A stretch of DNA of 64,000 nt from Phoronis australis (GCA_002633005.1 NMRA01000458.1:296872-360871), one strand, 5' to 3'; positions 25,101-64,000 are shown, numbered from the stretch's first letter. The notes: generated from the letters alone by a model not told the origin. Program-made: numbers and translations.

Positions 25101-28100
25101 ATCTGATACGACATAGTGTTAAACAATGCTACTGCCACAGTCACGTGAGGTCATATTATGTTAGCTGCAAGTAATCACAATACTTGCTCGAGTCAGTGTT
25201 TGACTTTCAGCATGGGTGCCGCAGCCAAAATACTTCCTTAACTAATGCCTAACAATGGCACACCTTGCCAGCATACAATACTTTTAGTGAATCTGTCTAC
25301 TTCTAAGATTGATGTAAATAGTTATTTACAATATAACGTAGCGCTGGAGTCTGGAAGTGATTACACCTACTACTTTATCAAATTGTTTGTTTTGCAATTA
25401 TTTCGTCCTTTGTTAAATTAGCTATTTTAATTGTAATATTTGCTGCACATCAGACTTATTTGGGAACGTGTTTATTTCTGTTGGCAGTTTTTTTTTATCT
25501 TACCTCTGATTCATTTTATTGCATGTATTTGGAATTTTTATGGCATTTGACAAATAAACCAATGTAGCTAACAGACATCGGTGCAGTGAGTGGGTAATCT
25601 TTCCAGGATCGGGTGTTATAACAACACTATGAGCTACAAAACCCCGCCGTTGACAGGATTTTTGAAAAAGTGCATAGGCCATTCCACAGGCTTGAACTTG
25701 CGGGAAATGCGGAAGGCTGAAGACAACTACATTTTTCAAAAACTGTTATTTGGCTAAGCATAAATAAAAGTGAAGTTCATTATTCATTTTTATACATGAT
25801 CAAACTTCTCTCTACAGATTGATAGCGAAGACGAGTCTGATGACGAGTGACCTCCCATAGTACATCCTGCTTCCCCACGAGNTGATTACACCTACTACTT
25901 TGTTAAATTGTTTGTTTTGCAATTATTTCGTCCTTTGTTAAATTATTTATTTTAATTGTAATATTTGCTGCACATCAGACTTATTTGGGAACGTGTTTAT
26001 TTCTGTTGGCAGTTTTTTTTTATCTTACCTCTGATTCATTTTATTGCATGTATTTGGAATTTTTATGGCATTTGACAAATAAACCTATGCAGCTAACAGA
26101 CATCGGTGCAGTGAGTGGGTAATCTTTCCAGGATCAGGTGTTATAACAACACTATGAGCTACAAAACCCCGCCGTTGACAGCATTTTTGAAAAAGTGCAT
26201 AGGCCATTCCACAGGCTTGAACTTGCGGGAAATGCGGAAGGCTGAAGACAACTACATTTTTCAAAAACTGTTATTTGGCTAAGCATAAATAAAAGTGAAG
26301 TTCATTATTCATTTTTATACATGATCAAACTTCCCTCTACAGATTGATAGCGAAGACGAGTCTGATGACAAGTGACCTCCCATAGTACATCCTGCTTCCC
26401 CACGAGTGGCATCGATATCTAGGTAAGTCTACTTATACGGAATTTCCCGTACATTTAAACTCGAAACAAATTCTTAAACGCGTCCTCATCTAAACTTGCT
26501 CTTCTCTTCAGTCCGAAATTATTCTAAAACGAGACATTTTGAGCCAACGCTTTAAGCGGGCTTGACTACGGAGTTTCTTCATTTGAATTTTTCATGGGTT
26601 GTAATAAATTCAAAGCTGACATTTACATTTTTGAAATATGTTGTATATTTTTTTGTAATTAACCTGATGCAAAATCATTTCATTTGTGAACAAATTGTTA
26701 CGTGTATAACGAATAGGTACCTGAATATATTTATTTCCTTTCAGTGATATTGTTCCTGGTACATTTGAAGCACACCCGGATGTCCAAGAAGTGATCGACA
26801 GAATAATACAAGAGACTTGTGAAGCTAGTGAGTGTTACACTATGTGGTGTTGAAAATGCAACTTTTTCACACATATACCTTCCTTCAACACGTATTCAAT
26901 AGGAAAACAAAACAATTTGAGACTGATACCGAAATTATACGCCTAGACGCATTCATTGAAAACAAAACGATGAGCTTTATGGTGAAAAGAAATGTGTGAG
27001 GTCGGCAAAACGATATCAAAACAATTTGCAAATTTTGTTTGAAATGATACAAAAATTATATATTAATAGTAACATTTTCAAAAAAGATGTAATCCAGTGG
27101 ACGCCGCCTTAATAAGCACATAAATTCCCAAAATTCATAGAGTTATCTCTTAATTGATTTTAGGGAAAGCAAGGAGCCAGTAACAGTTCTAAAGGCTTAC
27201 AGAAGTGCTTTCTTGAAAGGACGCGCACTGGATGTTTTAGATATGTCCGCTGTACTGGACGGTGAAGTAAGCGACATATTTTTATCTCGTAGTCGTTTGT
27301 GGGAAACTGCAGTGGAGGAAATCACTGCACTAAATAATATTCGATTTCCTCTCCGCGTCATCTTCTACGACGAAGAAGTGGAACACTTGGGAGGACCTCG
27401 ACGCGAGTTCCTGACACTAGCTCTCAAACACGTGCGAGAGAATCTTTTAGTGTCAGATGAAGAGGACTCCCTGACAGTAAAATCACGACAACTTGGGATT
27501 ATCACGCCACCACTACTTCGTAGCAGGAATAATCTCAGGTACATTGCATTCAGGTCATTACAATGTAACGACGCTGTTATTATTGAGTAAAAGAAATTAA
27601 TCTATTCAAGATCAGTCAGATTTATTGCATGTCTGGTTTATCTTTTAATAGTCTGCCGTACGTGTGAGCAAGTGCTCAGAAATAGCAGTCAGCAATGCCA
27701 GTGAGGCAATGTTTCTGTCAGCTCATACACATATTACTATTGTGGTATTCAAATGTATAGAAACAGTGCACCATATGGCTTTGTGTGAGCCAAATATCAG
27801 GTGCCAAATCAATACAGTTAGTGAAGTCTTGAACTATTATTTTGTTATAGCGCCAAGTGCACATCAGCCGGGTCCGCAACATACTTCACCACTCGGATGC
27901 CAAGTACCGGACAGACGCGTAAATTGCTGGAAAGAGCTGTCCGTACTGTACAAAGATACATGTAACCCCTGGTGTGCAGCTGTTCTTGTCAACCTACACT
28001 CTTCATGAATTCACAGGACTCTCCCTCCTGGAAGGAGGACCCCGACCGTCATTTCTGTTTAACATAGTTGATCAAGAAGATGTCTCTGAAGAGCGCAACA

Positions 28101-31526: not shown

Positions 31527-34500
31527 CTAACTCAATGCACAACACCTCAACATATGTGGCCCACCAAAACTGCACGACATACACAGTTTGGCAGCCATTT
31601 TGATATGCATTGCAGGGTACCTTCTCTTGCACACATGACAAGTTTCGAAGCCTGGAAGTTGCTGGATCTTGTGCCGGATGCAAAGCCCAGCCTCTTGAGT
31701 TGAGTTGAGCACTGGATTGCCACATACTATACATGACTGACCATGAGGAAAGTTGGCCATTGGATTTCTCTGATTCACGCAGAATGAACAGATGTACAAC
31801 TTTTGTACGTTTGCCATCTGACCTCGCATGCTGCACCGAATTTTCTGCAGCAACAAGAGTAAAGAATTAGTCAACATAGTTGCACTGGTATACCAAATAT
31901 CATATTTATGACTATTTGTTTTGCTTTCACAATCAGTTTGGCAAAAATATATATTTCATGACGTCAAAGTGGTCTCAAATCAGCCAGAAATAAAATGGTC
32001 ACCGAGAGAGAGAGAGTTCCACATTGGCACATAGTATGGAGTTTGCAGCAAGAACAAATGACCTAAGAATCATCATTTAACACCAACTACACTATGGCGA
32101 ATGTATGAATCATACTGAAGGGTACTTACATCAGTGTAAATATGACGATAGTACTGAGGCTTGCCCTGAAGAAACTGAAGAAGCCTACAAACACAACATA
32201 TTCCATCAGTTGGTTACAACTAACAACATCAACCAATTGGAGTACATCAATGACTTGAGGTAGTACTTTCATTTCAGTGCCACACGCATGCGACATATCC
32301 TGGCTCTGTGTTATCATAGCAGGATCATAAGAAAGGAATGTTTTGATCACACCATGCTCAGCAAATTAAATACTATTGAAAACGTGTATGATTTCCAATA
32401 TTTTTCTGAGTGTGTACAGTGTACATCCTAAAATAAAAAAGTTTCAAATAATATTCATATAAAATAGCACCACAAACTTGGATAGTCATCTTGTTGCATC
32501 ACAATTGGCCACTAGGTTGAATTCACTTAAGTGAACCACAAATCTTCAAAAAATTTCGATCATTGATTTCCTTCTGCTGAAGTCTATGTGCCATAGTATG
32601 GTGACTTTTATTCATTTCCCCAGTTTCTAAATGCTGTCTAATTCCTTGGAATCCATTGGTCTCTGAAATTTCACATCAACATCCAAAAAGATGATATCTG
32701 ACAGTGCCACGTAACCAAGTTTTTCATTGGTCAGTCAGACACAGCCTTGAAAGAGGTTGACCTGTATGCAAATTATAATTAATACACACTTGTATTTAAG
32801 ATCCTAAGTTTCATTGGTTGGACCTTGAGCTTTAGACTATTTTTGTCACTTCACAAATACATTAACTTTCTAGATATTCTTTAATTTCGTTTAACTGATT
32901 TTTATGCCCTAAAAGTGTAGACTAAATCCAACAGATTGTAGGGTTGACACTATCGCAAGTCTGAGTGAAGGATATTTTTAAAAAAGCATAGAGCAAGTCA
33001 TCTAGAAAAACTTAGGGCCCTATCACACCTAAGAGAATATAGTTCTCCGTACAATCATGAAAGCCAGCTAACAGGAACAACTGACCAAACACAATGTTGC
33101 ATGTTTTTGGCAAAAGTTGCCTATTTGTGCCAAACTTTGGCAAGTTTCATAGAAATATTAAAACAGGCTAAAGCATTAAATTTTAAGAGAGTCCAGTGTG
33201 ACAGGGCATTTACTGGATTTTGCAGAACCAGCTCATTCCTTCACCTGGGCCACCAAAGCGTTTCAATTCTTTGATCAAAATATTTATTAAGTAAGATGCT
33301 CCTAAAGACTAGAATTACATTTTTCTCATTGTTAAGTAAGATGCTCCTAAAGACTAGAATTACATTTTTCTCATTGTATCAGAAACTGTAAATGAGTATC
33401 ATTTCATATGAGGAATTTAATCTTCAAGCCTAAAATGCATGATGTAGGTGTGATTGACAACTGTCAACTCTTACCATTAATCCATTCATTCACTCACCTT
33501 GACTTGTTGCCACTTTGCAGCACATGATGACACAGTTCCCCAATCATAGTGGTGTCCTTCGTGTTGCTGTATTTGGAGTACAGACAATCACTGACGTGTG
33601 TCGACCACACCACTCGGTCACTTGGATCCCCTAAGACCAGCTCAGTGGTAGCCTAATACAGATTCAAAATTAAACATAAATGGCTCTGTTCCATAGATGG
33701 AAATGAGAAATAGGTTTGTCAATGGACTCTGCAGATATTTTCACCAAGAGTTTCTTGTGTTATTCACAATTCACTTTAACAGTAAAATATTTTAAAATTG
33801 ATTCAGTCATATAATTTGCAGATGATTTCATTGACTTAGCAAGAGTTGGCTGTGGAAATGCCACGGAAGGTTTGAATTTCCAATGAGTACTAAATGTTGT
33901 AAGCAGTCAATTTTTACGACATACATTAACAGTATAAGCATAAGGTTAAGTATCCTTAAACCATGACTTGTGAAGTTACATACATGTTACACAACCTCCT
34001 CTGACCAACACAACAGCAATGTTTTGATAAATAGAAAACTTAATGTATTCACACAAATTGACATGATGAACAGACAACTTCGATTAGTCAGTTAGTGCCA
34101 GTGGCAGTGGAGGCAACAGTTACTACAATTTCTTTATTTCCCTTTTGAGTTACCTCAAGATCCTATGTTAGCTAGAGTGGCACATACTAATCAATTTGAA
34201 CCGTCACATTTGATTGTCTTTTGCTATGTGTATGCCTGATGTAAGCAATTTGTCCGATATACGCATACTGAGGTGATGGTGAGAGCGAGGAGAGAGTAGA
34301 ATGCACATTGATCCCATTACAAGTTGTATGAAGTTATAATAAAGCTCAACAAAGTCAGGGTCCATACCATTATTCACCTTACACCCAACATGTCTCGGCC
34401 TTTTACTCGAGTACTTACAGTTTGTATCACATCAGAAATGGAGTAACCACACCAAAACACTGACCTGTTGAACAGCTGTGTGGATAAACAGTATCCTTTC

Positions 34501-37500
34501 ACTCGACCCTGACACGTGACGCACAAATGGCTTCAGTTGACGGCAGATAATTGCCCAAGTTATTGGTGGTACCATGGGAAGGTCTGCGTCACCAAGAAGA
34601 CAGAGTACATCATCGCTGGTGACACCATACAACATGCTGCCCATAATGCACAGAAACTGAAAAATGAAAAAGTCAACGAATAAACAAAAGATTGGGAGCG
34701 TAGACATAAATCTTTTGCACAATGATCCTGATGGTACTTGTGATTATTCAACCTCAAAAAAATAGAAAATTTTGTGCAACCTCCTTTCCGATCTCTTATA
34801 ACATCCACCTCTAACCTAAAAGTACAACTCACCTTTTTCATGCAGCCTGTTTCATCTTCATCAATCAGCCTCTGTAGAATGTCTCTGACAAGACCATTCA
34901 GGGAGTCGGGCAGATTACTGATCTTCTGCGTCACCATGGAGAATTCGCCAAATGTTCGAAGCTCTTCGCAAGCAATTGACAACCACAGTGGTACATCAGA
35001 CGCTGGGTTGGACAGAAGTAGTCTCATTTGATTAGGGTCAAGTCTCTAAAAAAGAAGTGTTAATTTTGCAAAGTTTTACTCCATAATAAAAGTATAAATG
35101 AGATTTCTACATCACTAAAAAAAATTTCGAATGTGATAGCTTTTGATAGGTTACGTTAAAGTAACATTTCACCATACCACGGATACTACAAGACACCTGG
35201 GAAGGACAGAAAAGAAACAAGACCTTGGTTCTTTGCCACGCAGAGTACAAGACAAAATTTACATTCGGTGATTGGGCGAGTGGCTAAGTATATCCCTGAC
35301 ATAATGTAGTCTGCACTTCTGCACATCTCAGTAAACAAGTAACAAATATGCAATGTGAGCATCACTCGCTAGACTCTCAACAACAACATGAATACCTCAA
35401 AGAAAGTATATGGGTAACACCAGAAGACACCTGGTGAGAAACTGAGTAGACAACATAGACATCAAATCATGAACATTCTGGGCAAAAAATTATCATACCG
35501 TGTTTGGGGTATACAAAGGTCCCTGCACATAGCATAACAGTGGTGCTATCCTGTTCACGTACTTCATCAACCTTCATACCCGCAGGACTGCTTAAGGGAA
35601 GCATCGGCCTTAAGCTTATGGCTAACCACCAGGCCTTCATCAGCCTTGAGCTTATGGCTAACCACCAGGCCTTCATCAGCCTTGAGCTTATGGCTAACCA
35701 CCAGGCCTTAATCTACAGGGTGTCCAGAGTGTCCAAATGGAAACCCTGAATCAATTTTAGACACCCCGACTAGAATGCCCTTGTTCTGCATTTGGACCCC
35801 CAAGCAAAGCAACCATTGTTTCTTTTAATGTGCCAACAGCAGCACTGGGACCTCATAGTCCGGTCCAGGCTTACTTCTCCGCAAACAATTAATAAACAAA
35901 TTTGAATGCTCTGAATGTAAAATTTTCTGCTACTCTTGACTTACCTTGTTATAGCGACCAAAGTACCGCTCTGCCAAAGTCTGACGGCAATCAATGCCCA
36001 ACAGAGGGAGCTCCATGGGCACACAGTGCGTAAGACGAGCGGAAGTAGGAGAATCATCTGACCTGGCACTCACAATGCAACAAACGTTTCTTGGAAACAA
36101 TGGCGGAAGTAAATCCAAATAATAACTACTGCTGTGGTCATGCAACTGTAATAATAACCATATGGTGAGACGAAATATTCACTGACAGTAACGCAATTTG
36201 ACTTATCCAGACGATCCTTATTCATGAATAGTGCAAAATTAATGGGATCACTGCACTCTTTCCCAGCGCAACGAGCGCTAGCACTGTGAAAAGATCATGT
36301 AACATGGGTTCTCATTTACTAACAGAACAAAGTAATATTGTAACATTCTGATTGGTTGGAAAATAACAATCGGACATGTTGATTGATGAAATGCACATGA
36401 ACAATGCTCCCTCTATTGAGAAATGTCTCTGCAGCTTGCGGCTGCAACACGACAAGACAACTAAAAGAAACTGTCACTGACAGCTAAAATGGTGAAACAA
36501 TGCTGAGAAATATTTCTACAGTGACACGCCATCTTGTTCACTCTGTGCATCCACTATGTGGCATTGTTGTCTGGACAAGTCTAAAATTTCCTGATTACAT
36601 AGGTGTATATCCTATGGAGTTGGAATCGTAATCCATCTCTGCTTAGGTTAGAGTATGGTGATTCTCCAACCCTCTCTCGAATCAATTTGGTTCCAAATAT
36701 TGTGGACGCACAGAGTGAACAAGATAGCGAGTCGTTTTACAAGTATTTCTCAACATTATTCCACCATTATAGCCATGATTAACAGTTTAGCTTCTTATAT
36801 TGCATGTGAACAACATCAGATAACCTTTCATCAATATAAGATAGACTTATCTAAATGAATGTAATCCATACAGATAAGCGTTTACATTCACGGTAACAAG
36901 ATGTGAAACAAAACAACAAAACAAATCACTATACTTTTCCCGCTCATTCCTGCACCACATGTTTACAACATCCATAACAAGGCATGTGTATTAATGCCAA
37001 ATGCTAATTTCTAACTGTCGATCATAAGCCCTTCACATGGCCATTCTCCTGCATAGGTGGTGCTGCGACAGGGTGTAACTGTCAACAACTTTGCTGTCAC
37101 ATAGTAAAATTCTGCGTCCTTCAGAATTAGTCAAATCAACATGCTTAGCTTAACATCCTACAACAGGTGAATAGTTCAGGGCAGTTTTGCACTAACCTTT
37201 GCGAACATCAAAGAAAAAACATTCACCAGTGTGAGAGTAGTTCACAATTACCCTTTCATGTACCTCATTGAGTCCGTCAAGTATTATGACAATCCTCTTC
37301 CCGCTTTGCCTGCACTGATCCAGACAATCGGCCATTAGAGACTGACTACTACCATACCGGCTAAAGCCGCCCTTCTCTGTAACACAAGTAGGTATTGTGC
37401 TTCAAACCCACAATAAGTAAAACCAGTGCTTTAGAATCACTGAAGCCATTGTTTCATGCACATAGTAATCAATTCAAAGTATAACTTGTAGAATTAGACT

Positions 37501-40500
37501 TGGATTATTTACAAAAGAATTTGAATTATGCAGCATGTCTCTGTTTTTGCACCCATGTACAATACACACACGGCAGTCAGTTAAGACATTATCTTGTGAG
37601 TTTGGAGGGATCACACAAGACCACATCATGGTAATACAAGATTCTATGGCATAAGCGTGCTACTATTCTAAATCTATACCAGCAAAATGGGTGTTATTGA
37701 AAAGTTTTCCTTAGTGAACATGATCAAATGATAATGAGTCATGTTAAAATTTTAACAGCACTTCCCATCAAGACTTATTAGCGGAGTACTGTCAGTAGAT
37801 GAGCACGTCATCTACCTTAAATTTGAATAAGACTACTTAGGTCTCAGTAACTGTCGTCAAACTTTTTGTGGACGTGGCAAAATTTAGAGCTCTTTGAAAA
37901 TCCACACAACTCCGTGAAGGCAGTCTCGTAACACTTAATGTCTTTGACTTAGTGACTGGTGCTTTCAAATACATGTTGAGCTCTGTACAAAATTTGAAAA
38001 ATAGCAAAACCATTGCAAATTCCAAATATGCAAGCTGTTGAAGACAGCATTGGCTCCTGTCAATTGTACCTTCCTCAAAGTTGTTCCAAAATCATAAGAA
38101 AATTTGCTACAGATTTCTAAATATATCCAACAATCTAGACTGTGTTCTTATAAAGAGCAAACCTTTGAGAAGCGTAGGGGCCAAGTCAGCCAACAGTCGC
38201 TCCACCAGGTAAACACTGTTAGAACTCTGGGCTGAGCTACCGACGAAGTGATAAAACAAATGAATGGTGTCCTGAAATAAACCAATGATGGCACATTAAA
38301 TAGATTACAAAGAAGATTTATGACAAGTATGAAATCTCATTAGATAAAACACCTTTTGCGAGGCAAAAAAACAAGGTGAATTTTTGTCCCACTACCCATG
38401 AACCCATGATGTCATGTTACTGCACAGTGGGAATCTGCCTGAGGTTTAAAAGACCTTATTCAAGTTTTCCACATGCAGGGCTATAGATTTTATGCCACAA
38501 GATGGCAATTTTGTCTTACTTTCCCTGCTTAGTTGCGAAACCCTGTCTATTGACAATGGCAAGACGAGACAATGCTTCATTTCAACTTCATTAAGGTAAT
38601 GTAGTGACAAAACTATTCTTGTAATACAGCACTCACCATGAGTAATAAGACAAAATGACAGAATTTGTCATGATGGCAAAAAGCAAACACGTTTTACTTT
38701 AAGTAATCCACCATGACTGGAATTATAGGGACTTCAATGCAAAGCTAGCAGAGTGAAAGTGACACGCTATGACTACGAGTTTACCAAAATGATGAATCAT
38801 TACAGTTCATTTTTCCTGTAAAAGAAGTAAGTTATGAGAGGGGAAACAATTATTTTCAATTACACTTGGCGTCCACTGTAGGTGTAACATGAGACCTCAA
38901 TCAACTTCGAACCTCGGCACGCAGGTAACTTACAACAGCACATACCTTTTTCAACAGTTCTGATGTTACTTTGGCCAGAAGGCTGGTCTTCCCAAACCCT
39001 GCTGGAGCCTTAACCCAAACTGCTGGGCCATCGGCTAATGTCAGCTTCCATTCCTTTCGTTCTGCAATGTCAAACATTGAATGTTCAAGCTTTCTAAGAC
39101 AAAATGCAAATGCGAGAGCCACTCATTAAAAGACTGAGAAGAAACTCTACCAAACTCGATAGCACAAATAGTAATCTAGAGATTAAATTTGTTAGCCTCA
39201 GCATTATCAAATTAGCCCAGGTGTATTGTTTTCTTTGTATTTTATGAAACTTTTTCACAACAAGCAAAATTCAGAAAAAACACAGTTTGCTCACTAGTAA
39301 CACTTATCTCAAACCTTATTTAGTGGCCTCTACTCTAACTCGTACTTAGTGGCCTCCATTCTAACTCATATATCAAACCTTATTTAGTGGCCTCCATTCT
39401 AACTCGTATATCAAACCTTATTTAGTGACCTCCATTCTAACTCGTATATCAAACCTTATTTATTGGCCTCCATTCTAACTCGTACATCAAACCTTATTTA
39501 GTGGCCTCCATTCTAACTCGTACTTAGTGGCCTCCATTCTAACTCATATATCAAACCTTATTTAGTGGCCTCCATTCTAACTCGTATATCAAACCTTATT
39601 TAGTGACCTCCATTCTANATTTAGTGGCTTCCATTCTATTTCTAACTCGTACATCAAACCTTATTTAGTGGCCTCCATTCTAACTCGTATCAAACCTTCT
39701 TTAGTGGCCTCCATTCTAACTTGTATATCAAACCTTATTTAGTAGCCTCCATTCTAACTCATATCAAACTTTATTTAGTGGCCTCCATTTTAACTCGTAT
39801 ATCAAACCTTATTCAGAGGCCTCCCTTCTAACTCGTATCAAACCTTACTTAGTGGCCTCCATTTTAACTCGTATATCAAAAAAGCTTTGTCAAATAACTA
39901 ATAAAAGTATATATTTTCTGAAAGAAAAAAGACCAGGGAATATAATTTTTTTTTGTATTAATCACTATTATCATTATTAAGTTAACACCTCTTTAAGTCA
40001 AAATTTCATTTTTAAGAAAGGTATATTCATAGCAAAATAACCCCTCGGTCAATTTTAATGAAACCTTTTTTAAATGAAAACTTCACCAGTTACCTAAAAA
40101 ACGCTGTTAGGAATTTTCGATTAGTAGTCTTTTCGTTTGGTTTCTATGACAAATCAACTTGCAAAACGTAAGGCATATTTGTAAAAAATAGAAGTCATGT
40201 GTCTTTGTTGGACTGCGAAAAAACAAGGCCTTTATATCAAAAATCCTAACAGCATTGTTGAGATTGATGAATAAATATTAAATTTGGAATGTTTCTGTGA
40301 AATCATGTTAGCTATTTCAACATTCACTTGCAATGTCAACTGGATTTGCAGAGCGTAATTAACTTATCATTAAAACGTACTATCCCCACCACGAGGTGGG
40401 ATCAAAAGTAGGTCACAGTTCATTGTTATACACATAGTCTGTGCATATCACGAGGCGGAGACTGATACGAAACCAAGTAAGAAATGGATAACAAATATCG

Positions 40501-43500
40501 TGTCAGTGGTTAAAGCATATCATTAACATGAGATCGAAACAGCAAAACATCAATTTATTAATTAAATAACAGAACTTGGGTGAGGATTTACCTCTTTTCA
40601 CAATTTGCTGTGTTCATGACCACAGAGGCGTGAAGTGACTTGTAGCATTCGTTCTCATTGTTTGTATGCATACAGACACACAACTCCCTCAGGATAAAAA
40701 CTATGTTTCGTATTAGTTTTCCCAGGCACCATTCTACCATACGTACAACTCGGTGACTCAATATTATGGCAACTCGGTGAATGAAAGAACTGAGGGCACA
40801 TACGAAGCTGCTCTGCACCTGGTGGGAGATTCGATTTGAGTGACAGCCCTGTAACCTTTGACCTCGGATAAGTAGTATTTTGTAAAACAAATATCCATGC
40901 GCTTGTGCGGTTCCAAGTTGGTTTTGCTAAATCTTTTTTTCTCGCTACACGGTATATATTTTGTATTTGAAGTTCCCCGAGAATGAAAAAAGGTATTTTG
41001 CTAGACATGTGAAATATTGTAAAAATGGCCAATTTTTGTGAATAAGGTTTCAGATAACCTTTAAAGTAACATTTTGATAAAAGAAATAAACACAGAACAT
41101 TGATGTGTGCCAACAGTGTGCATCACATACGGCACATTATACAAAGGATGACCATTATTTCCACAAGAGGGAGCAACTTTATTAAATTTGAAAATGCCTT
41201 CAAGTGATTTAGCGAAAAGGGAGACAGACTCAAAAACAGACATAAAATATTAAAAATGGCAACTAGGGGTCGCAGAATATGTTGAATCTATTCGAGAGCA
41301 GAAAAGGTGTTGCGAAATTTCATGCACCTCTTTTAACTGAAATTGCCAGAAGGGAGCACAGCGATTGTCGACTCAGTCTGAAAATTTGCTCATGTCATCT
41401 GATCCATGATAGGAACATGTCTGGAAATCTTCAACTTCCATCAAGGAGTTTTGGAGATACAGCAGCAGACACAAAACAAAAAGTACAAGGTCCCAAAATA
41501 AGCCATCATAGACATTACCAAGCTATAAAATTTCATGTAATTTAACATCTCATTCCAAAACATAATGAAACTGGTAAACATATATTCATTTAAAAATGTA
41601 GAAAATGGTCTTGGTATACTACAGCACATCAACTGGGCAAAAAAAATCAAGCAAACCTACCATTTTCTGTGAGCAGTTGTTCATTGTCAACTCCATGGGG
41701 GGCGTCATAGGTCATGTCACCACAGGCAAACTCTATCAACTTATTAAGCTCCGACTCTAAACCACAGACACACTCGGAATGTTTATTGACATACAGCTTC
41801 TGAAGTTCACACTCTGAAAAGCAAATAAATCACAATGTGGTTTGTAATGAACTGATGGTACAGCACAATCTTTTACCATATTATAACTGATGTGTTTTGG
41901 ATGAATATGCACTTATAACCAATTACCTCGTAAAACCACACATATTACTTTGCAAAATGTTTGTGACAGAAAACAGACTTATTGTAATATTTAATTACAG
42001 TTACAGGCAATGACTCGTTGTCACACCTTGTTCGGATGAATCCAGGTCTTTCACATTAGCTTGGTCAGGAAATTTCTTTAAAATGGCATTTTTGAAAAAT
42101 TCCAGCACCCTTTTACCAAATTCTTCCAACCCAGACAGATTAACCTGAAAACAAAAGAACCAATCAACACTCAACACTGATATAACATACCAATACATGG
42201 CCACATCAACACTGATATTACATACCCATACATGACCTCCATGATAGCAAGTAACAGCATATGTTCACGAAAACAACAACGGATTTAAAACTTGACATGT
42301 TTCGGTGTCATTTATTAAACACCATCCTCAGAAGTCATAATACAGTGGCCACCTAGCTAGGCCCAGCAACAAGTAATGAATACATGACCACAGTAAAGAA
42401 GGTTATTCTAAATGTAGATCATCTGGTCAGAAGCTACTCATAAAATATTGTCAACATTATCATTCAGCAAACAATTTTGCCAACCAAATGAGTATTGCCA
42501 GTAAGCCTAAATGAACCATGATGTCTTCTCACTTACTCTGTTTTTCGTTCAACTTGTCGTTCTCGAGTTATTAGGCTGTGAGATACCAACTGACCAATGC
42601 AAACGCTACGAGATGTCATACAACCTTATCAATCCATAACTACATTTTTCTGATAATATACCGTAAGACAATTCCACCTAAACATCAATATGTCATCAAT
42701 CTCAGGAAAATAGATATTCCATCTACTTTTACACCATCTCAGCGCATTGACCATCTACCTTTTCCTGACCCGTAGTTCTCTCCTCAGTCCCTGTTACTTT
42801 GCACTTGTAGTGAAACACTTGGCCAGGAAACCTTTCAACCAGCTTCTCCTTCAAAGTCTGAAATCCAAAGACGTGAACAAAAGTGTATTTCCCAAACATA
42901 ACTGAAACACAAGCAGAAATGTAGCATTTAATATGACCATCGCAAACATCTCATGATGCAAAATAGATGTGTAGCAATCTTAGGGACTTTAAGGACTATA
43001 AACTGGACATGCAATGATCACCAATTTTAGTAGGCAAATGTCTTTATTCGTTAAGCAACTCTTTACACCATCAGCTAATGATTATGGGCATAAAATCAAA
43101 TGTCGTCCACCGAACACAGATTTGTAGTATGTTCGGTATGTTCAAAGTTGCATTGTACGCCATTTGAACTTGAACACCTAACCTCATGTGAAAGAAATAT
43201 GTGGCAAGTAAGCTAACGTGTGTTTTCAAAAACCAACAAAACTAAGGTAACATATTTATCTACAGCTCAACAGGAAGTTGTCGGAACAGTCCAAAAATGG
43301 ATTAGTGATGCTATCTTCTGTATCAAATCCCACGCCAAGCTCCAAACACAAAATGCAAATAAGGGCTCGATTTTCGTCAGAAAACACTTAACACTGAACT
43401 GCGAAAGAGTCCAAAGTATACGTTAGGTAACAGACAGGCATGAGCTAAATCTGAACAAAATCTCAAAAAAATGTACAGAAGCTAGAGCGATGACAAGCAA

Positions 43501-46500
43501 AATCATGACGGACAACAGCGACTGACTGATAATGGACCATGTGCCAAGAATGCATCGTAAGCACAGCCATCTAAAAATAGGTGCATAAAAAGGCCAGTAT
43601 TTCAAACTCCACAACAAAGTCCAAAGGATTCTTCAGTAGCCACACACAAGCCAAAGTTTTTGTTTTCTGTCTCAGGTCATCAGTATTCAAGTGTCAGACA
43701 TGGACAGCACATGCCTAAGTTATGAACCACATCCATTCATACAGAACAGCTTTTTCCATGAAGAAGTGCAATTACCTTCAAATGTAACTTTGCTACTTCA
43801 TCTTGTTCTGTAAAATCCTTCACAAACTGTGGCGGCAGGTCCTTGACAAAGTCAGGAGATCGGAATAAAAAGGCTGCATTAGGATTCTGTGATCTGAAAA
43901 CAAAGAAAAGCTCATCATGAGCCTCGTAAAGGTGCATTGTGGGTAACTCAGTTGTGCACTTCTAAATTGCTTGGAATAGAGCATAATGCAGTTTGCAAAA
44001 CATCCTTCAATAAGCTTCTGTGGTTAATGGATAAACTTGATTGACTTCACTGGTTCCATCAGGTCAACCAGTGCAGAGACTTGTAATGATTGGTTCTTAA
44101 TAACAGTATCTAGCCTTTCAGTTAAGCACATGTCTTGGCAAATTGACCTGACAGACCCAGAGAAGCCAATTAAGTGCAGCCAATGTGTTTGCCTGTGACT
44201 TTCAGGACCTGAATTATATTTTCGGCATTTCAAGAATGCAGGGTTAGTCCCATAAACGTGGTATACAGGCAGAGCTGCTCAGATGGACAACTTTTTCACT
44301 ACAAAAGGCTGTCTTTTAAATCCCTTTTCCAATTAAATTCCCAAAAACTTTGGGAGTTCAAAACTCTAAAAACATTCTTTTTCCACGTTATGAAAATCTA
44401 CAAGAGTTTTGTTATTATGTAATATAAATTTATATATATTTTCAAAACTAGGGCTGCAAAAGATGTTCTCATTTTTGTCAACATCGCATCTCTCTTTGTA
44501 CTCTTTCATGCTTAATAAGACAAAAATAGCTATACAAGAATCCCGACCAGAAAAGGTTAGTACTGCTAGGTTCGTGGAATCAACAACACAAAAGAAGGGC
44601 GGTTCTGGACCAAAACTATGAAAGGATGACTTTTTATGAAAGCTACCTACAAATGGAACATTAATTTCAGTCTATTCTTTAAATAGGTTGGTATCCCAAT
44701 TTTCCAGCTGCCCCATCCCCTCCCCGAGTGCCCTCAGGGTCAAGGCATATGAAATCTGCCATGTCATATGTTAGGAGATTGTGTTTTTCCTGTACCTTGG
44801 GCGAGTTCATACTAGTGCCAGTTTTCATTGTGTTGGAGTTAGCAAGTGTATAATCTCTAATAAGTAGTATTTTGTATCCTTATTTAAGCGGCAAGTTTTA
44901 TTTAGTAACTTGACCTCTAAGTACTTTCATAATTCATGCATTCAGTAAATCTGTCCCCACACCATTAAAAGCACATTAGCCACCAGTCCAACATCACATC
45001 CCCTAACAAAAGTGCCTAATGGGGCAAAACAAGCAAGTTGACATTAGGGCTCGGAATGACCAAAGACAAAAAGAGGAAAATTTTCCAGGTGATGTGTCGT
45101 TCCACAAATAAATAGGCTTGTGTGATAGAAATATTTTTCATGATGTAAAATTTAACTGAAATAAATGTTTATGCATGAATAAAGTAAAAATAAAGATAAA
45201 TAAGAGACAAAAAAGAGGAAACTGGAAATCAAATAAGAGGAAATTGAAACCATAAAGAGGAAATCCTCTTAAAAGAGGAAAATTCCAAGCCCTGCGACAT
45301 TGAGAATGTGGGACACCCAATCACTTTTAGTCATCAGGCACCAGCAAGACCAAATCAATCACCTTCCTTGAAGAAATTAGCATTTGCATGATCAAAGAAC
45401 TTTTGCCCTTAACCTACCTATAAGCAGCACATAGGATCTCCATCTGAGTGACTGAAGAACCAGACACCCATTGGTACAACTGGCATATGTCTTCTGGCAC
45501 ATCTTCATCACTAGGTACCCAGCCGTATCTAGACCATAACAATAACAGAAATTTGAGGTAAATTTTGATAGAGATGAGCCTTGAGACTACCAAACGGTAC
45601 TCAAAATTTAACTCATAAATTGACAAACTGCCATCGCTTATGATGTGATTGGTGAATTAGTTGAGCCACAAACAAAATTAGACGGCATTCAGCCTTGAAG
45701 TAGAATGTAAGTCAGCTGTAAAAAAACACACCATGTTTTAATTGTTTCCAAATCTCAACGGAATTTTAAATATCGAAAATTTCATTCATTTGTTAGAAAC
45801 TATTAGTCTTAGGAATTTGAAAAGAGATTCCTCCACAATCATTTTTCTATCTAAAAACAGAAAATACTTCATTTAAGAAATGACTTTACCCAAAAGAATC
45901 AATGTCAGTAATGACAACTGAAGGATGATAATAGTAATTTAAAACGTAAAAACAAAATACAATATTCTACCTACTAATTATAACCTGCACAAGTAACCAG
46001 CTAGCATTACATATCAGTCATAAGTCAGACATCCCATCATTCCACATTAGACATCAATTGTCAGGCATTATCTCACATTTCCACATCATAGATAAAATTA
46101 ATACCAAGAAGCAACACTGTAAACAAAGAAATTTCATGAAACCTGATGCATCCATTACGCCACCCGGTGGCAACATCGCACCAACTTGCCTTTCACTGAG
46201 CATGTTGAGAAAAAAAGCCTGACCATCAGTCTCTTCCAGACACCGATCAATCTCAGCAAGACACGTGGCTAGAACAACGCGAGATGTGGATTCCGCGGGT
46301 ACACCCCAACGCAGGTCACACTCGACAAGTTGTAGCTTGTAGGACTCGCACCACTCACGTAACTCAGGAATCACCTGCAAAGGACATATACATCATTGTC
46401 TGAGTACATTTACAACAAGACTAACAAAGAGTGGACAAGAAGATACTTTGGCAACAAACTAAGTATTGCTAAGACGGAAACCACAGACAACACTGACAGT

Positions 46501-49416
46501 GCAAAATCCTGGAAGTACTCCGTGAAACCGCACACTACTGCTAAAGTAAAGAGTAGAGAATGGTATGGCAGTTTTTCACATGGTGTAATCGTAGATATTG
46601 AGTCAGCCAAAGAAACTCGTATAAGGCCAATGAGATGAGCTCAAATTCAATTGGCCAGTGACAATGAGAAATGCACCATAACTGTCCAATAGTATTTGTC
46701 TAAGTGAGAAATGCACAAGCAACAACCAATGAGTCATAGAAAGCCTTTACATTCAAATGTATGTTGAGCTGCCAGTAACTCCAATCAGTGTTGTGGGGTG
46801 CATGGAATATTGAAAAACGCACTAAGAAAGCACTTTTTGCCAAGTAAATTTGATATTTCTGAAATGACTGGCCTATCCACTTGAGCGACGGACGACCAGC
46901 CGATAATATTAAGAAAGTGGTCTTCATGTCAAGCAATTTTAAATTTTAAATTTTGCCCGTCTTTTTAAACTCTGCCCATTCCGTTGAACCCAACCAAAAT
47001 AAAATTCTGGCCGTCCAAAAGACAGCGGCTGTATGAACCTGTGCCCCAGCAATGGACATCAAACTAAATCTGAAATTGTAACTACAGAACATGGTGATTA
47101 TAGTAGTTGCAGTGCACGTGCACAAGGACATAGAACTGACAGAGGCTTTGGACTATATGACTGGCCTATGCTGGAAAGGTATTGGTACTTAGCAATTGTT
47201 CCTCATGCCTAAAACCAGTATCAATCGTTATCGACTCATCAAAAAGTGGTAGATTGCCTAAGAAAATATAACATTAACATCGAAATAGCCAAATTTGAAA
47301 GAAACCAAATTTGAATTTACCACTAAATATTTATACGATTGCCATGGCTGTATTTTTATATTATTCAGGGTGGACAGACAGGTTCAAGTGTTTGAAACAC
47401 CCCCAATAAATAACAGTGGTAGAATTAACGCTTTCATTGTATTCTGAATGAGTAAACCCATTGATAAAACTGTAGATCTGTCAAGACTGTATCTGTCCTT
47501 TGAATAATAACCACTCCAGAAAAAATAAACTCTTGAATAGAAATTATGAATGCTCAATTTGATTATGTAATAAGCACATGCAGATTTTAAACACACTTTT
47601 TTTACAAGAAGTTCCCTTTCACAATGAAAATCCCTGAAAGTTGAAGATACGAAGAGTCTGACAATCTGTCGACCAATAATCGGAGGCGATTCAAATTGAG
47701 GCTTCACATAACATTTGCACTGGTCTTCAATGATCTTCCAGCAGCTGTCAACACACGACTGCATGGTTGAATCTAAAAAACAAAGACATGCACAATATAA
47801 TTATGGCACATGTCAACAAATAACTTATTAGGAGGGCAATGACAAATTCAACTCCACGCCATCTTGAAGTCCTTTTAAAGTAGAATATACAGATAGTGGC
47901 TTATAATTGTGGACAGATGTTGTGATTGGCTGATGATCGATTACAGTAGAAAATTACAAGATGTTACTGCACAAGGTGTACAGCATTCACCTGATGCATC
48001 CAAATTTAAATCAGAGCAACAAAAGGTGTTGATATGTGCCCACACTGCACTACAAAAAGTAAGTTTCTTGGGCTGCTCGTCAGTTTCATTTAAGGTACAG
48101 CGAGACAGCAGTTTGACCACAAGCTGCAATAGTCAGGATTGACAAAAAAGAGTTGATACCTTGTCTTTGAAAACTTAATCAAAAACTTTAAAAAATTAAC
48201 AGACATTTTACAACAAAGAACTAAAACATGCTGTAAAGAGACACAGCACTAGGCATTCGTACAATACCAGGTTTAGTCTACTGTTTTTCATAAGAACAAT
48301 CATGACAAGATTTGGCATATATAAAAGTAGACAGACAATGACAGAAAGGGCAAAGTACTATTTAGAAACTGCTCAAAATTGATAGTTGTCATCATCCCGA
48401 AATGAAACAGACACTAGGGTGTGCTGCAATAGTCAAATCACAGAAAAGTCGAATATAGAGAAAAGTGTCTTTTCACTGATGAACTTGCTGTGCACACCTC
48501 TCAGAAACTGTCTAAAGCAGACCACAGTCTTAGCACACCGAGATTATTCACTGTGGTCAACAACACTGTCATAAGAACAGTTGACTAGTGACTAGTACCT
48601 TTTAGTGCTTAACTTAAAACTGATACTTGCTTATGGTGAAAGCATATAAGTATAGCCATAAAAAGCAGTGCAGTAAATAAACATCACAAATATTCCCTTC
48701 TAATCAAAAGTGACACGGAAATTACACTTTTAGAAAAGAACACCACAAAAATTCCCCATTTAGAAGGTACAGGCACCTTTCTCTTCAGGTGAGTGAGGGC
48801 CCTGAATGCAGGGTTAGAGAGCATTCACATAAAATTGGATTGTTGATCAATGATCAATTGCCAAACACAGTCTGATTATCAATTTTGAAATCTGTCAATC
48901 CTATCAGTAGAATTTTTCTTTACAAATTATGCAAACTATACAGTCTAGTAAATTTGTTCTTACACACAAACTTCAGGCACATAGAAGAAGCCTGCACTAA
49001 ACTGTTGTTGTAAGAACCAGTCTTCGGTACAACAGTGCACACGACAGTGGCTTATCTGAATTACAAGGAGTGACAACGAATCTGTTTTCCCATAAATCAC
49101 ATGAAGACAACACCTTTCAATACAAACACTGGTCTTATTGTGGAATATTGCAGTTACCTAGTAACCTTTTAAATTTTTTCAATCAGAATACTGAAGAAAT
49201 CATGTGTGTTTATCATGTGCACTTGAAAGCAACCGTAACACCCACGTGATTATTTGCCAAGAAACTCTTTGACAAAAATCATGAACTTGACCACACCCCC
49301 TTTTGTTTACCTCCGTTAACCGAAGAGCTTGACCTTCCAGACTGAATCTCCAAACTTGATGCAGTAGTAGTTTTCTGTCTCTTCGCTCGACTGACAGCAG
49401 ACGAGATGCTTCCCAT
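31527..49416 (-). CDS. DUF4062-NACHT (TEP1/NWD/NPHP3-like STAND NTPase) protein with N-terminal MGxxxS motif and C-terminal PHF5-like zinc domain; 17 coding exons, 845 aa
   Basis: Exons (-): 49416-49311, 47772-47597, 46374-46190, 45528-45418, 43893-43776, 42857-42759, 42144-42027, 41813-41661, 39061-38946, 38271-38163, 37376-37264, 36145-35945, 35045-34833, 34656-34465, 33652-33498, 32184-32130, 31844-31527. Total 2538 nt, all phases compatible, no internal stops. DUF4062 motifs RLFVSSTFRDFHCERELL, CDLRWGV, ERYGWVP, SVTQMEI; Walker A APAGFGKTSLLA; FYHFVGSS; Walker B IVIILDGLNE; PLWLSIACEELR; FIHTAV. Confidence 0.9.
35602..35709. repeat. 36-bp tandem repeat x3
   Basis: catcagccttgagcttatggctaaccaccaggcctt units. 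Confidence 0.9.
39306..39880. repeat. ~38-bp minisatellite (roughly 14 units, contains gap N at 39618)
   Basis: tatcaaaccttatttagtggcctccattctaactcgta units with shorter variants. Confidence 0.95.
42290..42335 (-). ncRNA. Minimal type I hammerhead ribozyme (Penelope-type) in intron 6 of the NACHT gene
   Basis: Minus strand ACTT-CTGAGGA-TGGTGT-ttaataaatg-ACACC-GAAAC-AT-GTC^AAGT: stem I ACTT/AAGT, CUGAnGA and GAAA cores, stem II GGTGT/ACACC, palindromic stem III ACATGT, GUC triplet. Confidence 0.8.
45045..45294. mobile_element. Short hAT-like MITE remnant
   Basis: Termini TAGGGCTCGGAAT ... ATTCCAAGCCCTG with subterminal aaagaggaaa repeats; target-site duplication imperfect. Confidence 0.4.
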
Positions 49417-52179: not shown

Positions 52180-53410
52180 CAGCTTGACCACAGGTTTCGG
52201 TACTCGAGTTGATCGTCTTAACACAGGTTTAGGTAACACTTCAGGCTCAGGTGTAGATGGCTGTGACACTTCAGGAGCTGGTAACGTAGGTTGAACAACA
52301 TGTTTCTCAGCAGTTGTTCCAGAATGCATGAGAAATACTCAGTTTCTGCGTATCTGCGAGACAGTCTCTGTTAGAACTTGGTAAGACCGAGGCGTAGATA
52401 ATCGCTGTTCGATTTCCCCAGGGAACAGAACAGCTAAGGTAACAGTTCTGTGATGCTTATCGAAGTTCGATCTATCCATCCTCTCCTGTGTCTGTAAATT
52501 TTTGTTGTCAATGTTCGGAAGTTCTTGGAGAGCTTCCTTAGTTGTCGGCAAAGTGGTCCGTAGACGTCTTGACATCGAAAACTGACTGGGTGATAACCCA
52601 TTACGCAACGGTGTACAACGGTAAGCCAGAAGTCCAACAAAGGGGTCTGTGTTCTGCCTAAGAATGTTTTTAGCTGTTTGAACCGCTCTCTCTGCCTCGC
52701 CATTGGCCTGAGGGTATAATGGAGAGGATGTAATGTGATCAAAATGATACTCTTGCAAAAAGAGACGAAAGGCGTCACATACATACTGAGGTCTGTTATC
52801 GGAGATCAAAGCATCAGGTATGCCATGAGTAATGAAGATACCTTTAATAGCCTCAATAACATGTTGAGCACTTGTTTTAAGTAGACATTTTATCTCAAAC
52901 CAGTGTGAAAAGTAGTCTACAACGACGATATAGTAAACTCTGTCAATTTCATATAGGTCAGGTGCAACTCGTTCCCAGGCACGATCAGGAAAAGCTGACG
53001 GAAGAAGGGGTTCTTTCTGTTCAACAAAATTTTGTGCACGTAGGACATTGTCTACATATGTTTTCTATCATCGAACTAACCAGAGGCCACCACACGCTTT
53101 GCATAGCTCGGGCTTGGCATTTGGAGATGCCAAGGTGACCTTGATGTATCTGGTCCAACACTTCTATTTGGAGAGACTGGGGTATGATTATGCGATCGTC
53201 ATACATGAGCAGATCATCAGTCAAGGTTAGGTGATAACGTCTGCCTTTGTAGGTTTTTAGTAGTGGTTGGTCAGGGGGAAACGATGGCCAACCATGTCTA
53301 CAGAAGGCGATAACTTGCATGCAAACAGGATCTTCTGCCTGTACACTTTTAATTTCATGGGTGTGATGGACGTACGTGACGGACGTACAAATTTGCTGTA
53401 CGTCTGTCAC
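52180..53410 (-). mobile_element. Ty3/Gypsy LTR retrotransposon pol remnant (integrase), copy 1
   Basis: IHQGHLGISKC..VWWP..CPTC (HHCC zinc finger), ISDNRPQY, SSPLYPQANGEAERAVQTAK, LLAYRCTPL; frameshifted. Confidence 0.9.
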
Positions 53411-54230
53411 GTAATTTCTGACTAAACAAATAATCCCTGGGATCCGAAATTTTGGTCAATAGTATAGAGCAACAAGTTAAAAGAGAATCTGAAATTACTT
53501 TAATTTTGAATAAAAACTTTTAACGTAACAAAACTTTTTAACACTTTTTTGTGACGGACGAACAGCACCATGATATCCAGGAGTTGACCTTTGACCAAAG
53601 AGGTCAGTGATGTGCCAAAGTTGAAATGTTATTTTTTATAAAGTTTGGGGTTCGTGTGATTGTACAAATTTGAAAACACCATACTTAGCTTTTTTATGAT
53701 AATAATTAGCAACACACATGAAAATGGAGCTAATTTCTTAGGTAAAGTCACCCCCAAAAACGGGTCCATTTAGGCACAAACATTGAAAGTTATAGGATAG
53801 TCAAATATGGGTCCTGAAACTAGAGAGAATGGGCTTTCAGACGAGACCAGAAATGTTAGTGTAACCACTATTTCAATTTTTTGTCTCGAGGTTGACTTTT
53901 TCACAGAATTGCCCGTGACAATGAACTTGCACGCCCGACATCAACTTGCATGTTTACGAAACTTTATTTTTAAAACTTCTTGTCCTTTGTTACGATGAGA
54001 AATATTTTTTGTTTTGATACCTTGTTTTCTAGGCCCCCATACACAATGAAGCCGTGTCTGCCCATCGGTCAAAATAGTGCAGATATTGAACAGCAGCAGC
54101 CACATGAGACGGAGTCAAAGCAGAGCTGTAATGTTTTGATGTTTCCTGTCACTTCAAATCAACACAGTATCTCCTACTCGAATATCGCATGATTTTACTC
54201 CAAATTTATTGTCAGCATATAATTTCATTN

Positions 54231-54668
54231 CAATTTTCACAATCATCCTTTGAGCGGTTTGGTTGATAGAGGGGTGGACGCACAAAAACAGACACGAAAA
54301 CACTAAAAATGGCCACTAGGTGGCGCAAACTATGTCGAATCCACCTGAAAACGACAGGATAGCGTCATCTCACTAATAGGTGCCTACATACCAAATTTCA
54401 TGAAAATCCGTTAAGGACTTTTGAAGATACAAAGGTAAGCGTAAAAAACTAAAATTGCCACTAGGGGACACACCGGTAGTCGGATCCGTCCGAATGTTCG
54501 CACATGCCGTCCCATTCATGAATGGAACATATGTGCCAAATTTCATGAACGTATGTCAAAGGGAATTGGAGATAAAGCAGCGGACGCCGGACGAACGCCG
54601 CCCGGACGGACGGACGGACAGACGGAGATGACGGCATAATGCGTCCACATATAAGTATGTGGGCGCAT
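54231..54668. mobile_element. Non-autonomous interspersed repeat with (GACG)n tract (Helentron/DINE-1-like)
   Basis: Internal repeated ccaaatttcatgaa and ccactagg motifs followed by a cggacggacggacagacgg microsatellite; absent at the equivalent site in the 51632 copy. Confidence 0.5.
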
Positions 54669-55206
54669 AACAAAAAGGTTGTATTGAATAGGGGTCTATA
54701 TACAACACCATTGCAAGCGGGTGTTATGCGCAGCTGTTCGAATTAAAAGGTGGTTCTCGCAGTGACGTAGACAAAAGCAAGCCAATACGCCTAACAGTTC
54801 ATTACATTTGGCAATTTGTGTCACAAGTGGGCTCAGAGCGATGCTCTTAACATACTGTAGGAACCAAATTTACAGGTGTTACCGTTGAAGCTAGGCTTTC
54901 AGTGAACAAGGGCCATTTACCATGACCATGTTTAAAGACTTCAATTGCAAGTGATTTCATTCTAAAGTTATTACAGCAATACAAAGTTTGTCCTACTTAA
55001 ATAAAGTTGCATTTAAGGGAAGTCAGTGGTGTAGATAATACAGAACCACGTCTGCATGAAAAGAAAAGATGAACGCTGACCAATTTATTCAGAGATGTCA
55101 GGAGAGACAATAGCATAACATACAAGCATGCAGGGGAGATAACTCCACTAACGTTAACTGTCACATAAATCAATGAACTTATAGTCCAGTAACACAATAC
55201 AGTCTA

Positions 55207-56470
55207 TTCACAGATCCAGCTTGACCACAGGTTTCGGTACTCGAGTTGATCGTCTTAACACAGGTTTAGGTAACACTTCAGGTTCAGGTGTCGATGGCTG
55301 TGACACTTCAGGAGCTGGTAACGTAGGTTGAACAACATGTTTCTCAGCAGTTGTTCCAGAATGCATGAGAAATGCTCAGTTTCTGGGTATCTGCGAGACA
55401 GTCTCTGTGAGAACTTGGTAAGACCGAGGCGTAGATAATCGCTGTTCGATTTCACCAGGGAACAGAACAGCTAAGGTAACAGTTCTGTGACGCTTATCGA
55501 AGTTCGACTTGTTGCACAATCTATCCATCCTCTCCTGTGTCTGTCAATTTTTGTTGTCAATGTTCGGAAGTTCTTGGAGAGCTTCCTTAGTTGTCGGCAA
55601 AGTGGTCCGTAGACGTCTTGACATCGAAAACTGACTGGGTGATAACCAATTACGCAACGGTGTACAACGGTAAGCCAGAAGTCCAACAAAGGGGTCTGTG
55701 TTCTGCTTAAGAATGTTTTTAGCTGTTTGAACCGCTCTCTCTGCCTCGCCATTGGCCTGAGGGTATAATGGAGAGGATGTAATGTGATCAAAATGATACT
55801 CTTGCAAAAACAGACGAAAGGCGTCACATACATACTGAGGTCAGTTACCGGAGATCAAAGCATCAGGTATGCCATGAGTAACGAAGATACCTTTAATAGC
55901 CTCAATAACATGTTGAGCACTTGTTTTAAGTAGACATTTTATCTCAAACCAGTGTGAAAAGTAGTCTACAACGACGATATAGTAAACTCTGTCAATTTCA
56001 TAAAGGTCAGACGCAACTCGTTCCCAGGCACGATCAGGAAAAGCTGACGGGAGAAGGGGTTCTGTTTGTTCAACACAAGTTTGTGCACATGTAGGACATT
56101 GTCTACATATGTTTTCTATCATCGAACTAACCAGAGGCCACCACACACTTTGCATAGCTCAGGCTTGGCATTTGGAGATGCCAAGCTGGCCTTGATGTAT
56201 CTGGTCCAACACTTCTATTTGGAGAGACTGGGGTATGACTATGCGATCGTCATACATGAGCAGATCATCAGTCAAGGTTAGGTGATAACGTTTGCCTTTG
56301 TAGGTTTTTAGTAGTGGTTGGTCATGGGGAAACGATGGCCAACCATGTCTACAGAAGTCGATAACTTGCATGCAAACAGGATCTTCTGCCTATACACGTT
56401 TAATTTCATGGGTGTGATGGACATATGTGACGGACGTACAAATTTGCTGTACGTCTGTCACGTAATTTCT
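55207..56470 (-). mobile_element. Ty3/Gypsy pol remnant (integrase), copy 2
   Basis: Near-identical to copy 1: PDRAWERVASDLY..VVVDYFS..HGIPDALISGN..YPQANGEAER. Confidence 0.9.
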
Positions 56471-59750: not shown

Positions 59751-59759
59751 TTATTCAAA

Positions 59760-60250: not shown

Positions 60251-60289
60251 AACACGCACACCGTTATAAGACGCTGCAGTTACACTAGC

Positions 60290-63879: not shown

Positions 63880-64000
63880 GATCGAGTTTGTAAGCAATAT
63901 AAATAAATAAATAAACAGGGACAAAGTATTAGGGAATGAATTGGCGTTTATAACCAAGACACTGCCTGAACCATGGAAATGTACGGGAAACCACACCCAA

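Follow-up and report, generated by a model that had tools for sequence, protein, structure and literature searches.

A gene on the minus strand of a 64,000-nucleotide stretch of Phoronis australis DNA, here called the window, raises the question of whether an animal DUF4062-NACHT protein can end in a zinc-binding domain in place of a repeat array, and whether such a domain shares the knotted fold of the spliceosomal protein PHF5A/Rds3. A gene of this kind had been proposed from the nucleotide sequence in the original prediction. It was modelled here from splice sites and homology; the 2517 nt of coding sequence contain no internal stops, and the features of the gene are as follows.

31527..49416, minus strand: whole gene, 17 coding exons, 838 aa (open frame, splice sites, homologs)
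49311..49416, minus strand: exon 1, MGSISS start (Gly2, Ser6, basic patch), predicted N-myristoylation signal
47772-47597, 46374-46190, 45528-45418, 43893-43776 (span 43776..47772), minus strand: exons 2-5, DUF4062 TIR-like domain
42857-42759, 42144-42027, 41756-41657 (span 41657..42857), minus strand: exons 6-8, DUF4062-NACHT linker
39093-38946, 38271-38163, 37376-37264, 36145-35945 (span 35945..39093), minus strand: exons 9-12, NACHT NTPase
35045-34833, 34656-34465, 33652-33498, minus strand: exons 13-15, helical domain, winged helix and start of the APAF-1-like arm
32184-32130, minus strand: exon 16, 55 nt, end of the helical arm and in-frame bridge from the core to the last exon
31844-31527, minus strand: exon 17, unannotated Cys/His domain with 12 ligands, predicted to bind three zinc ions

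The encoded domain order is an MG start, DUF4062, NACHT, HD1-winged helix-HD2 and the 12-ligand Cys/His domain. Exon 33652-33498 ends in phase 2, and the 55-nt exon, which reads RLLQFLQGKPQYYRHIYTD and is bounded by the acceptor gtttgtag and the donor gtaagt, ends in phase 0. The last exon follows the acceptor ctgcag, starts at 31844 and stops at 31527. The coordinates and phases that had been predicted for these two exons match the 17-exon model. Fifteen introns are GT-AG and one is GC-AG (after 46190); the GC donor of this third intron, at window 46189-46190, was needed to keep the conserved ERYGW motif. An acceptor-like AG lies 2 nt 5' of the ATG, so a further upstream exon is possible. The N at window 39618 lies in a tandem repeat (39300-39900) within intron 8; the exons on either side of it connect without a frameshift, and homologs align across the junction.

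Three RNA runs, picked by the same species label as the window, were compared with the gene model, and expression of the gene was low in all three. The joint 35045/35945 (CT..AC) was the only one to reach the listing threshold, with 3 reads in run X2 and 2 reads in run X3; the predicted junctions 33498->32184 and 32130->31844 were not among the joints listed for these runs. Bin depth in X2 was 55 aligned nt in the bin of the 55-nt exon and 41 nt in a bin containing 20 exon nt, with zero in the adjoining intron bins. These depths, which come from one or two reads, are compatible with removal of the final two introns; reads also fell in some other intron bins of the gene. Repeats in several introns drew many RNA reads that originated elsewhere.

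Pfam DUF4062 and NACHT matches were obtained in all six full-length members of the family that were scanned (best DUF4062 E value 1e-10), and the window exon alone matched DUF4062 with an E value of 0.016. Both Walker motifs of the window NACHT are intact (Walker A, APAGFGKT; Walker B, IIILDG). An AlphaFold model of the C-terminal 365 aa of a homolog, L001, had a pLDDT mostly of 85-96 over residues 21-240. Its helical part resembled APAF-1 (Foldseek E value 1e-3), it aligned with the STAND-TPR structure 6mfv (Z 11.7, rmsd 3.6, 214 residues aligned), and it contained the APAF-1-like helical domain, winged helix and arm. The Pfam matches and this model support the DUF4062-NACHT-winged-helix core that had been proposed. 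A C-terminal repeat sensor (WD40, TPR or LRR) is absent, and the Cys/His domain comes directly after the APAF-1-like arm, at the place where APAF-1 has its WD40 sensor; the domain therefore occupies the repeat-sensor position, as had been claimed.

The MG start was likewise where it had been placed, as MGSISS in exon 1. When scored with the N-myristoylation consensus, an MG-type start was present in seven of ten full-length zinc-type proteins and lacking in the other three as modelled. An MGxxx[ST] start was found in 80 of 114 other relatives.

The same architecture was found in other animals. A profile search returned 869 proteins at E<=1e-20, and among the best 120, which were examined, the Cys/His domain formed the C-terminal end of six: P0113 and P0118 (Logan), P0114 (Antedon), P0116 and P0119 (Branchiostoma) and P0117 (Glandiceps). 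The P0118 cluster contains a Pocillopora damicornis model. These six proteins were also the six best BLAST matches (36.5-39.6% identity) of the window core searched without the domain, which argues that the fusion is not a matter of chance. The seventh match was a partial Nematostella model, the full-length cluster mate of which (P0146) ends in the domain. Zinc-ended proteins were 800-980 aa long with the domain C-terminal, and a fragment of 218 aa, P0003, comprised a helical tail and the Cys/His domain. The domain was present in 5 of 80 metagenome loci. Among these five, L002 and L003 carry a complete coding sequence for the protein as one uninterrupted frame; in the genomic loci L031 and L032 the domain is preceded by an acceptor whose position, in phase 0, matches that of the window gene.

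The proposed joining of the Cys/His exon to the NACHT/winged-helix core is upheld by the stop-free frame and by homologs of the same architecture, which come from Nematostella, a Pocillopora cluster, Antedon, Glandiceps, Branchiostoma and metagenome contigs. The window gene encodes a conserved type of animal DUF4062-NACHT protein. An artefact of the gene model, or a separate neighbouring gene, was ruled out by the full-length homologs and the uninterrupted contigs.

The last exon by itself was a poor query. It gave no candidate among longer proteins, no PDB sequence match and no Atlas match at 0.9 or above; a search of 1.84 billion representatives gave two matches, of which P0003 is the true fragment described above and P0002, which is repeat-like, was rejected as spurious. 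No viral contig matched the L001 domain or PHF5A. Pfam has no family for the Cys/His domain, and public records name the proteins TEP1-like or TPR-containing. The public model P0137 (Pocillopora damicornis RMX58457.1) ends just upstream of the zinc-domain exon, and its transcript-like cluster mates P0118 and P0138 contain the domain. The missing of last exons in public models may be one reason why the domain has gone unnoticed.

Trees were built on the DUF4062-to-winged-helix core alone, with the Cys/His domain excluded. FastTree, run on a set from which every second non-zinc match had been omitted, placed the zinc-ended proteins in one clade (11 of 64 rows, support 1.0). In a quick IQ-TREE analysis, for which the non-zinc rows were halved again and 15 metagenome rows added, the clade was recovered with an SH-aLRT of 100 (10 of 52 rows). 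Under midpoint rooting the zinc clade was nested among TPR-ended animal proteins, and the branch linking it to the main TPR group had a support of 89; the branch of the window protein was long (1.35). The TPR-ended invertebrate proteins, which are annotated as 'telomerase protein component 1-like' or 'TPR repeat-containing protein DDB_G0287407-like', form the nearest groups in the tree and share the MG start, DUF4062, NACHT and winged helix; they end in a TPR array, whereas the zinc clade ends in a Cys/His domain of 105-118 aa. The window protein was 31% identical to one such protein, P0001 from Dimorphilus (CAD5125807.1), over 734 aa, and the alignment ended where the TPR array of P0001 begins. 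The nesting suggests a single replacement: with the root at the midpoint, a TPR array was likely exchanged for the zinc domain in an event that predates the divergence of cnidarians and bilaterians.

In the window protein the putative ligands are C737, C752/C755, C771/C774, C788/H791, C802/C805, C821/C824 and C834, with spacings of 14, 2, 15, 2, 13, 2, 10, 2, 15, 2 and 9, an order and spacing identical to those originally given. None of the 12 positions varied among the 13 aligned domains; outside them, conservation of 90% or more was limited to two columns. The loops were variable, with an identity of 22-34% between the window domain and its relatives, and the second ligand of motif 3 was His in the zinc-clade domains. 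From the ligand count, three zinc ions per domain are predicted. Site types alternated within the family (0.80 vs 0.00 +/- 0.17, 0 of 300 column shuffles), and the single-Cys flanks scored best against knuckle sites, by small margins. Its sequence pattern makes the domain a three-fold repeat built from CxxC sites of two types, knuckle and helix, and the two single cysteines probably close this repeat into a ring.

The published PHF5A crystal structure provides a reference for this pattern. In the text available for it, PHF5A has five CXXC motifs and two single cysteines, with motifs 1+4, 2+5 and 3+singles paired; motifs 2 and 4 are knuckles, motifs 1, 3 and 5 are helical, the chain forms a trefoil knot, and Rds3 is given as the only other instance of the fold in the PDB (PMC5458519). 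Rds3 is described, in the accessible parts of two further papers, as three fused GATA-like or treble-clef fingers (PMC7614390, PMC4506424). For the comparison a natural PHF5A gene, L081, was set against 10 non-redundant family rows, three near-duplicates having been dropped. This four-exon eukaryotic PHF5A gene (L081 425-966) has His for the second Cys of the first CxxC motif, and one exon differs from the human PHF5A PDB chain at about 3 of 55 positions. The record that contains it is titled as a bacterial MAG, so the eukaryotic gene is likely host contamination.

The likeness to PHF5A/Rds3 (Pfam PF03660) that had been claimed held for the order of the 12 ligands (a single C, five CxxC/H and a single C) and for the alternation of site types. 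The flanks of motifs 1, 3 and 5 resembled those of PHF5A motifs 1, 3 and 5, and those of motifs 2 and 4 resembled PHF5A motifs 2 and 4; the alternation score between PHF5A and the family was 8.0 vs -0.1 +/- 2.0 (0 of 5000 shuffles). The colinear flank score was equalled in 41 of 5000 shuffles (32 and 88 with two other windows), and the per-site score was highest in a register shifted by two. At the level of profiles no significant match was found. Pfam PHF5 matched 1 of 13 members (E value 0.073, 13.7 bits over 73 residues, against a cut-off of 26.7 bits and 74.9 bits for the L081 control), this match ranked below several unrelated zinc-finger models, and the window last exon gave no PHF5 match at E<=10. 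Comparison of the family with PHF5A by hhalign gave a probability of 9% in local and 2% in global mode, and 4% against the central exon, and neither PHF5A nor Rds3 was among the chains that two family profiles retrieved from the PDB at E<=10.

Two local matches to PHF5A had also been put forward. These were found to be out of register: in one, motifs 2-3 are set against PHF5A motifs 4-5, and in the other, motif 5 is set against PHF5A motif 3. A single colinear alignment cannot contain both, and the internal repeat present in both proteins accounts for them. As proof of homology they were rejected. The two domains also differ in context and spacing. PHF5A is a stand-alone protein of about 110 aa, whereas the window-type domain is fused at a C-terminus; motifs 1 and 2 are 3 residues apart in PHF5A and 11-18 apart in the zinc clade, and the knuckle-to-helix spacings are 12 and 10 compared with 13-17 and 13-23.

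The AlphaFold model of the window domain (8 sequences) had a pLDDT of 54.5 and, at this low confidence, placed helices at motifs 1, 3 and 5; the pLDDT of the zinc domain in the L001 fragment (15 sequences) was about 40-65. Foldseek and VIA-align, applied to these low-pLDDT models, found no match for the zinc domain, an outcome that speaks neither for the PHF5A fold nor against it. Alternation of a knuckle and a helix is a generic trait of treble clefs, so the shuffle result supports a three-finger repeat, does not support a knot and does not single out PHF5A.

The domain may instead consist of unknotted, local treble-clef fingers of the GATA, LIM or C1 kind that are unrelated to PHF5A, for example a C1-like lipid sensor beside the membrane anchor; this alternative bears on the fold and leaves the switch model set out below untouched. 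The longer knuckle-to-helix spacings would be sufficient for a local finger, the long loop between motifs 1 and 2 points the same way, and C1 or Prok-RING models equalled or beat the PHF5 score. The best PDB profile match was the C1 domain of PKC theta (E value 0.0027). The weak profile likeness to C1 domains (PKC theta, delta) is limited, however, to the C-terminal half of the zinc domain and leaves the N-terminal half unexplained. C1 domains have eight ligands in the order H-C-C-C-C-H-C-C, and in the PKC theta alignment the second His, which precedes the seventh ligand, and the last Cys are missing, so that two of the eight have no counterpart. Membership of the C1 family was rejected on this account. 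A linear array would also make poor use of the two single terminal cysteines, the flanks of which fit a split knuckle that closes a ring (by small margins), and no Pfam model but PHF5 was seen to cover a stretch as long as 73 residues in a member. We put local, unknotted fingers slightly short of an even chance. A relationship of the zinc domain to PHF5A is plausible, and the chances for and against a PHF5A-type knotted fold are about equal.

Conservation bears on a further proposal, in which the domain is a captured PHF5A copy that serves as an integrated decoy, so that a pathogen effector directed at splicing would trip the NADase. The shared ligand order (PMC5458519, in its available text, and L081), the shared site alternation (0 of 5000 shuffles) and the single PHF5 match across 73 residues (E value 0.073) would be expected of such a copy. 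A mimic would, however, have to preserve the PHF5A surface; PHF5A is nearly invariant and the zinc domain, at 22-34% identity, is far less conserved, which makes a decoy unlikely. The hhalign values and the lack of any PHF5A or Rds3 chain at E<=10 in the profile searches also weigh against it, and a domain present in animals as far apart as cnidarians and lancelets, yet without recognisable sequence kinship to PHF5A, would be a poor mimic. The decoy function that had been suggested thus fares badly, and we regard it as very improbable.

At the other end of the protein, the available text of a recent preprint (Osinski et al., bioRxiv 10.64898/2026.05.01.722283) establishes DUF4062 as a TIR-like NADase by experiment in TEP1. 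E1008 was required for this activity, R908 and R976 contributed, and activation of the TEP1 TIR was concentration-dependent; TEP1 alone of the four human DUF4062-NACHT proteins cleaved NAD+, with NWD1, NWD2 and NPHP3 inactive. The TEP1 TIR crystal chain 11gz was the top PDB match of P0001 (E value 5e-20). The construct start given in the preprint fixes the numbering of this chain, and all three named arginines then land on arginines. The equivalents of E1008 and R976, E186 and R156 in the window protein, were each present in all 11 zinc-clade rows, and the predicted TIR-like nature of DUF4062 thus agrees with the TEP1 experiments and with the catalytic Glu kept here. Nine of the 11 zinc-clade rows have A or T at the position of R908, which is R82 in the window protein; 49 of the 53 other rows have K or R there. 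Similarly, the position of E1006 was H in 10 of 11 zinc-clade rows, Q in the window protein and E in 46 of 53 others. The predicted active site is therefore retained yet changed in a clade-specific manner, and differs from that of the TPR-ended relatives at two positions. Activity may be changed or lost as a result; alternatively, H for E1006 together with A or T for R908 may mean a different substrate or product.

These residues are also relevant to a reading in which the protein is a non-immune scaffold of the NPHP3/NWD1 type, myristoylated and possibly ciliary, with a weak or dead DUF4062 and a zinc domain that serves as a constitutive protein-binding module. The precedent is human NPHP3, in which DUF4062 adjoins NACHT and which lacks NADase activity (bioRxiv 10.64898/2026.05.01.722283, available text) and is a myristoylated ciliary cargo (PMC8246649, available text). 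The window contains no paralog of the gene, and each named species was represented by a single cluster among the listed matches, unlike fast-expanding immune receptors. Such an apparently low copy number, conservation over a long span, the low expression in the three RNA runs and the absence of the R908 equivalent from most zinc-clade rows are what a scaffold would show. Against this, the catalytic Glu and the R976 equivalent persist in every zinc-clade row, the family DUF4062 aligns well to TEP1, the active protein, and Walker A and B are intact. We consider a scaffold the main rival of the switch reading given next, and less likely than not.

Our leaning, at slightly better than even, is that the conserved STAND protein is a likely membrane-anchored switch, in which the predicted three-zinc domain lies in the sensor position and gates a TIR-like NADase. 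Gly2 would be myristoylated and would tether the protein to the membrane. At rest, the zinc domain after the APAF-1-like arm would either keep the NACHT closed or await a ligand; binding of a protein or modified-protein partner would then lead to nucleotide exchange and oligomerisation, and clustering would line up the DUF4062 domains for NAD(P)+ cleavage. The fuller proposal, that this is an ancient animal NLR-like NADase switch with a PHF5A/Rds3-type trefoil-knotted three-zinc sensor, is tentative, and we would sooner doubt than assert it.

The zinc-type proteins share with human TEP1, NWD1, NWD2 and NPHP3 a DUF4062 effector before NACHT, an APAF-1-like helical domain and the catalytic Glu; unlike that set they have neither WD40 or TPR repeats nor TROVE/vWA. 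The word 'zinc' does not occur in the main text of bioRxiv 10.64898/2026.05.01.722283, which names no zinc domain (its auxiliary-domain figure, S1D, E, lies outside this statement), and the architecture is not described in the available text of a ctenophore genome preprint or of PMC11788884. The literature searched, which lay mostly outside subscription journals, gave no description of it, in line with what the original prediction had supposed, and an earlier mention is possible. This is, then, a conserved and apparently undescribed form of DUF4062-NACHT protein, whose terminal domain lacks annotation and probably binds three zinc ions.

The zinc clade offers a candidate sensor domain of about 110 aa for animal DUF4062-NACHT proteins, small enough for expression, structure solution and use as bait. 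Orthologs are present in tractable animals, namely Nematostella (XP_032236172.2) and Branchiostoma (XP_035668714.1). If the domain is knotted like PHF5A, it would widen a fold reported as unique to the spliceosome, giving the PHF5A/Rds3 fold a second home, would inform the origin of knotted zinc domains and would represent a STAND sensor other than a repeat array.

Elsewhere in the window, two plus-strand frames had no Pfam match: one at 5748-6032 that resembles an exon of a Polycomb EED/ESC WD40 gene, and one at 27141-27587 that resembles the start of a HECT-type domain. Pieces of an LTR retrotransposon occupy 52300-63999 on the minus strand, including an integrase core at 52342-53064 (Pfam rve, E value 1.8e-10) and a gag-like frame with a zinc knuckle at 60848-62116, and gag and integrase segments recur there as near-duplicates. 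A small zinc-finger-like frame (FYVE, E value 0.005) was present at 22499-22801.
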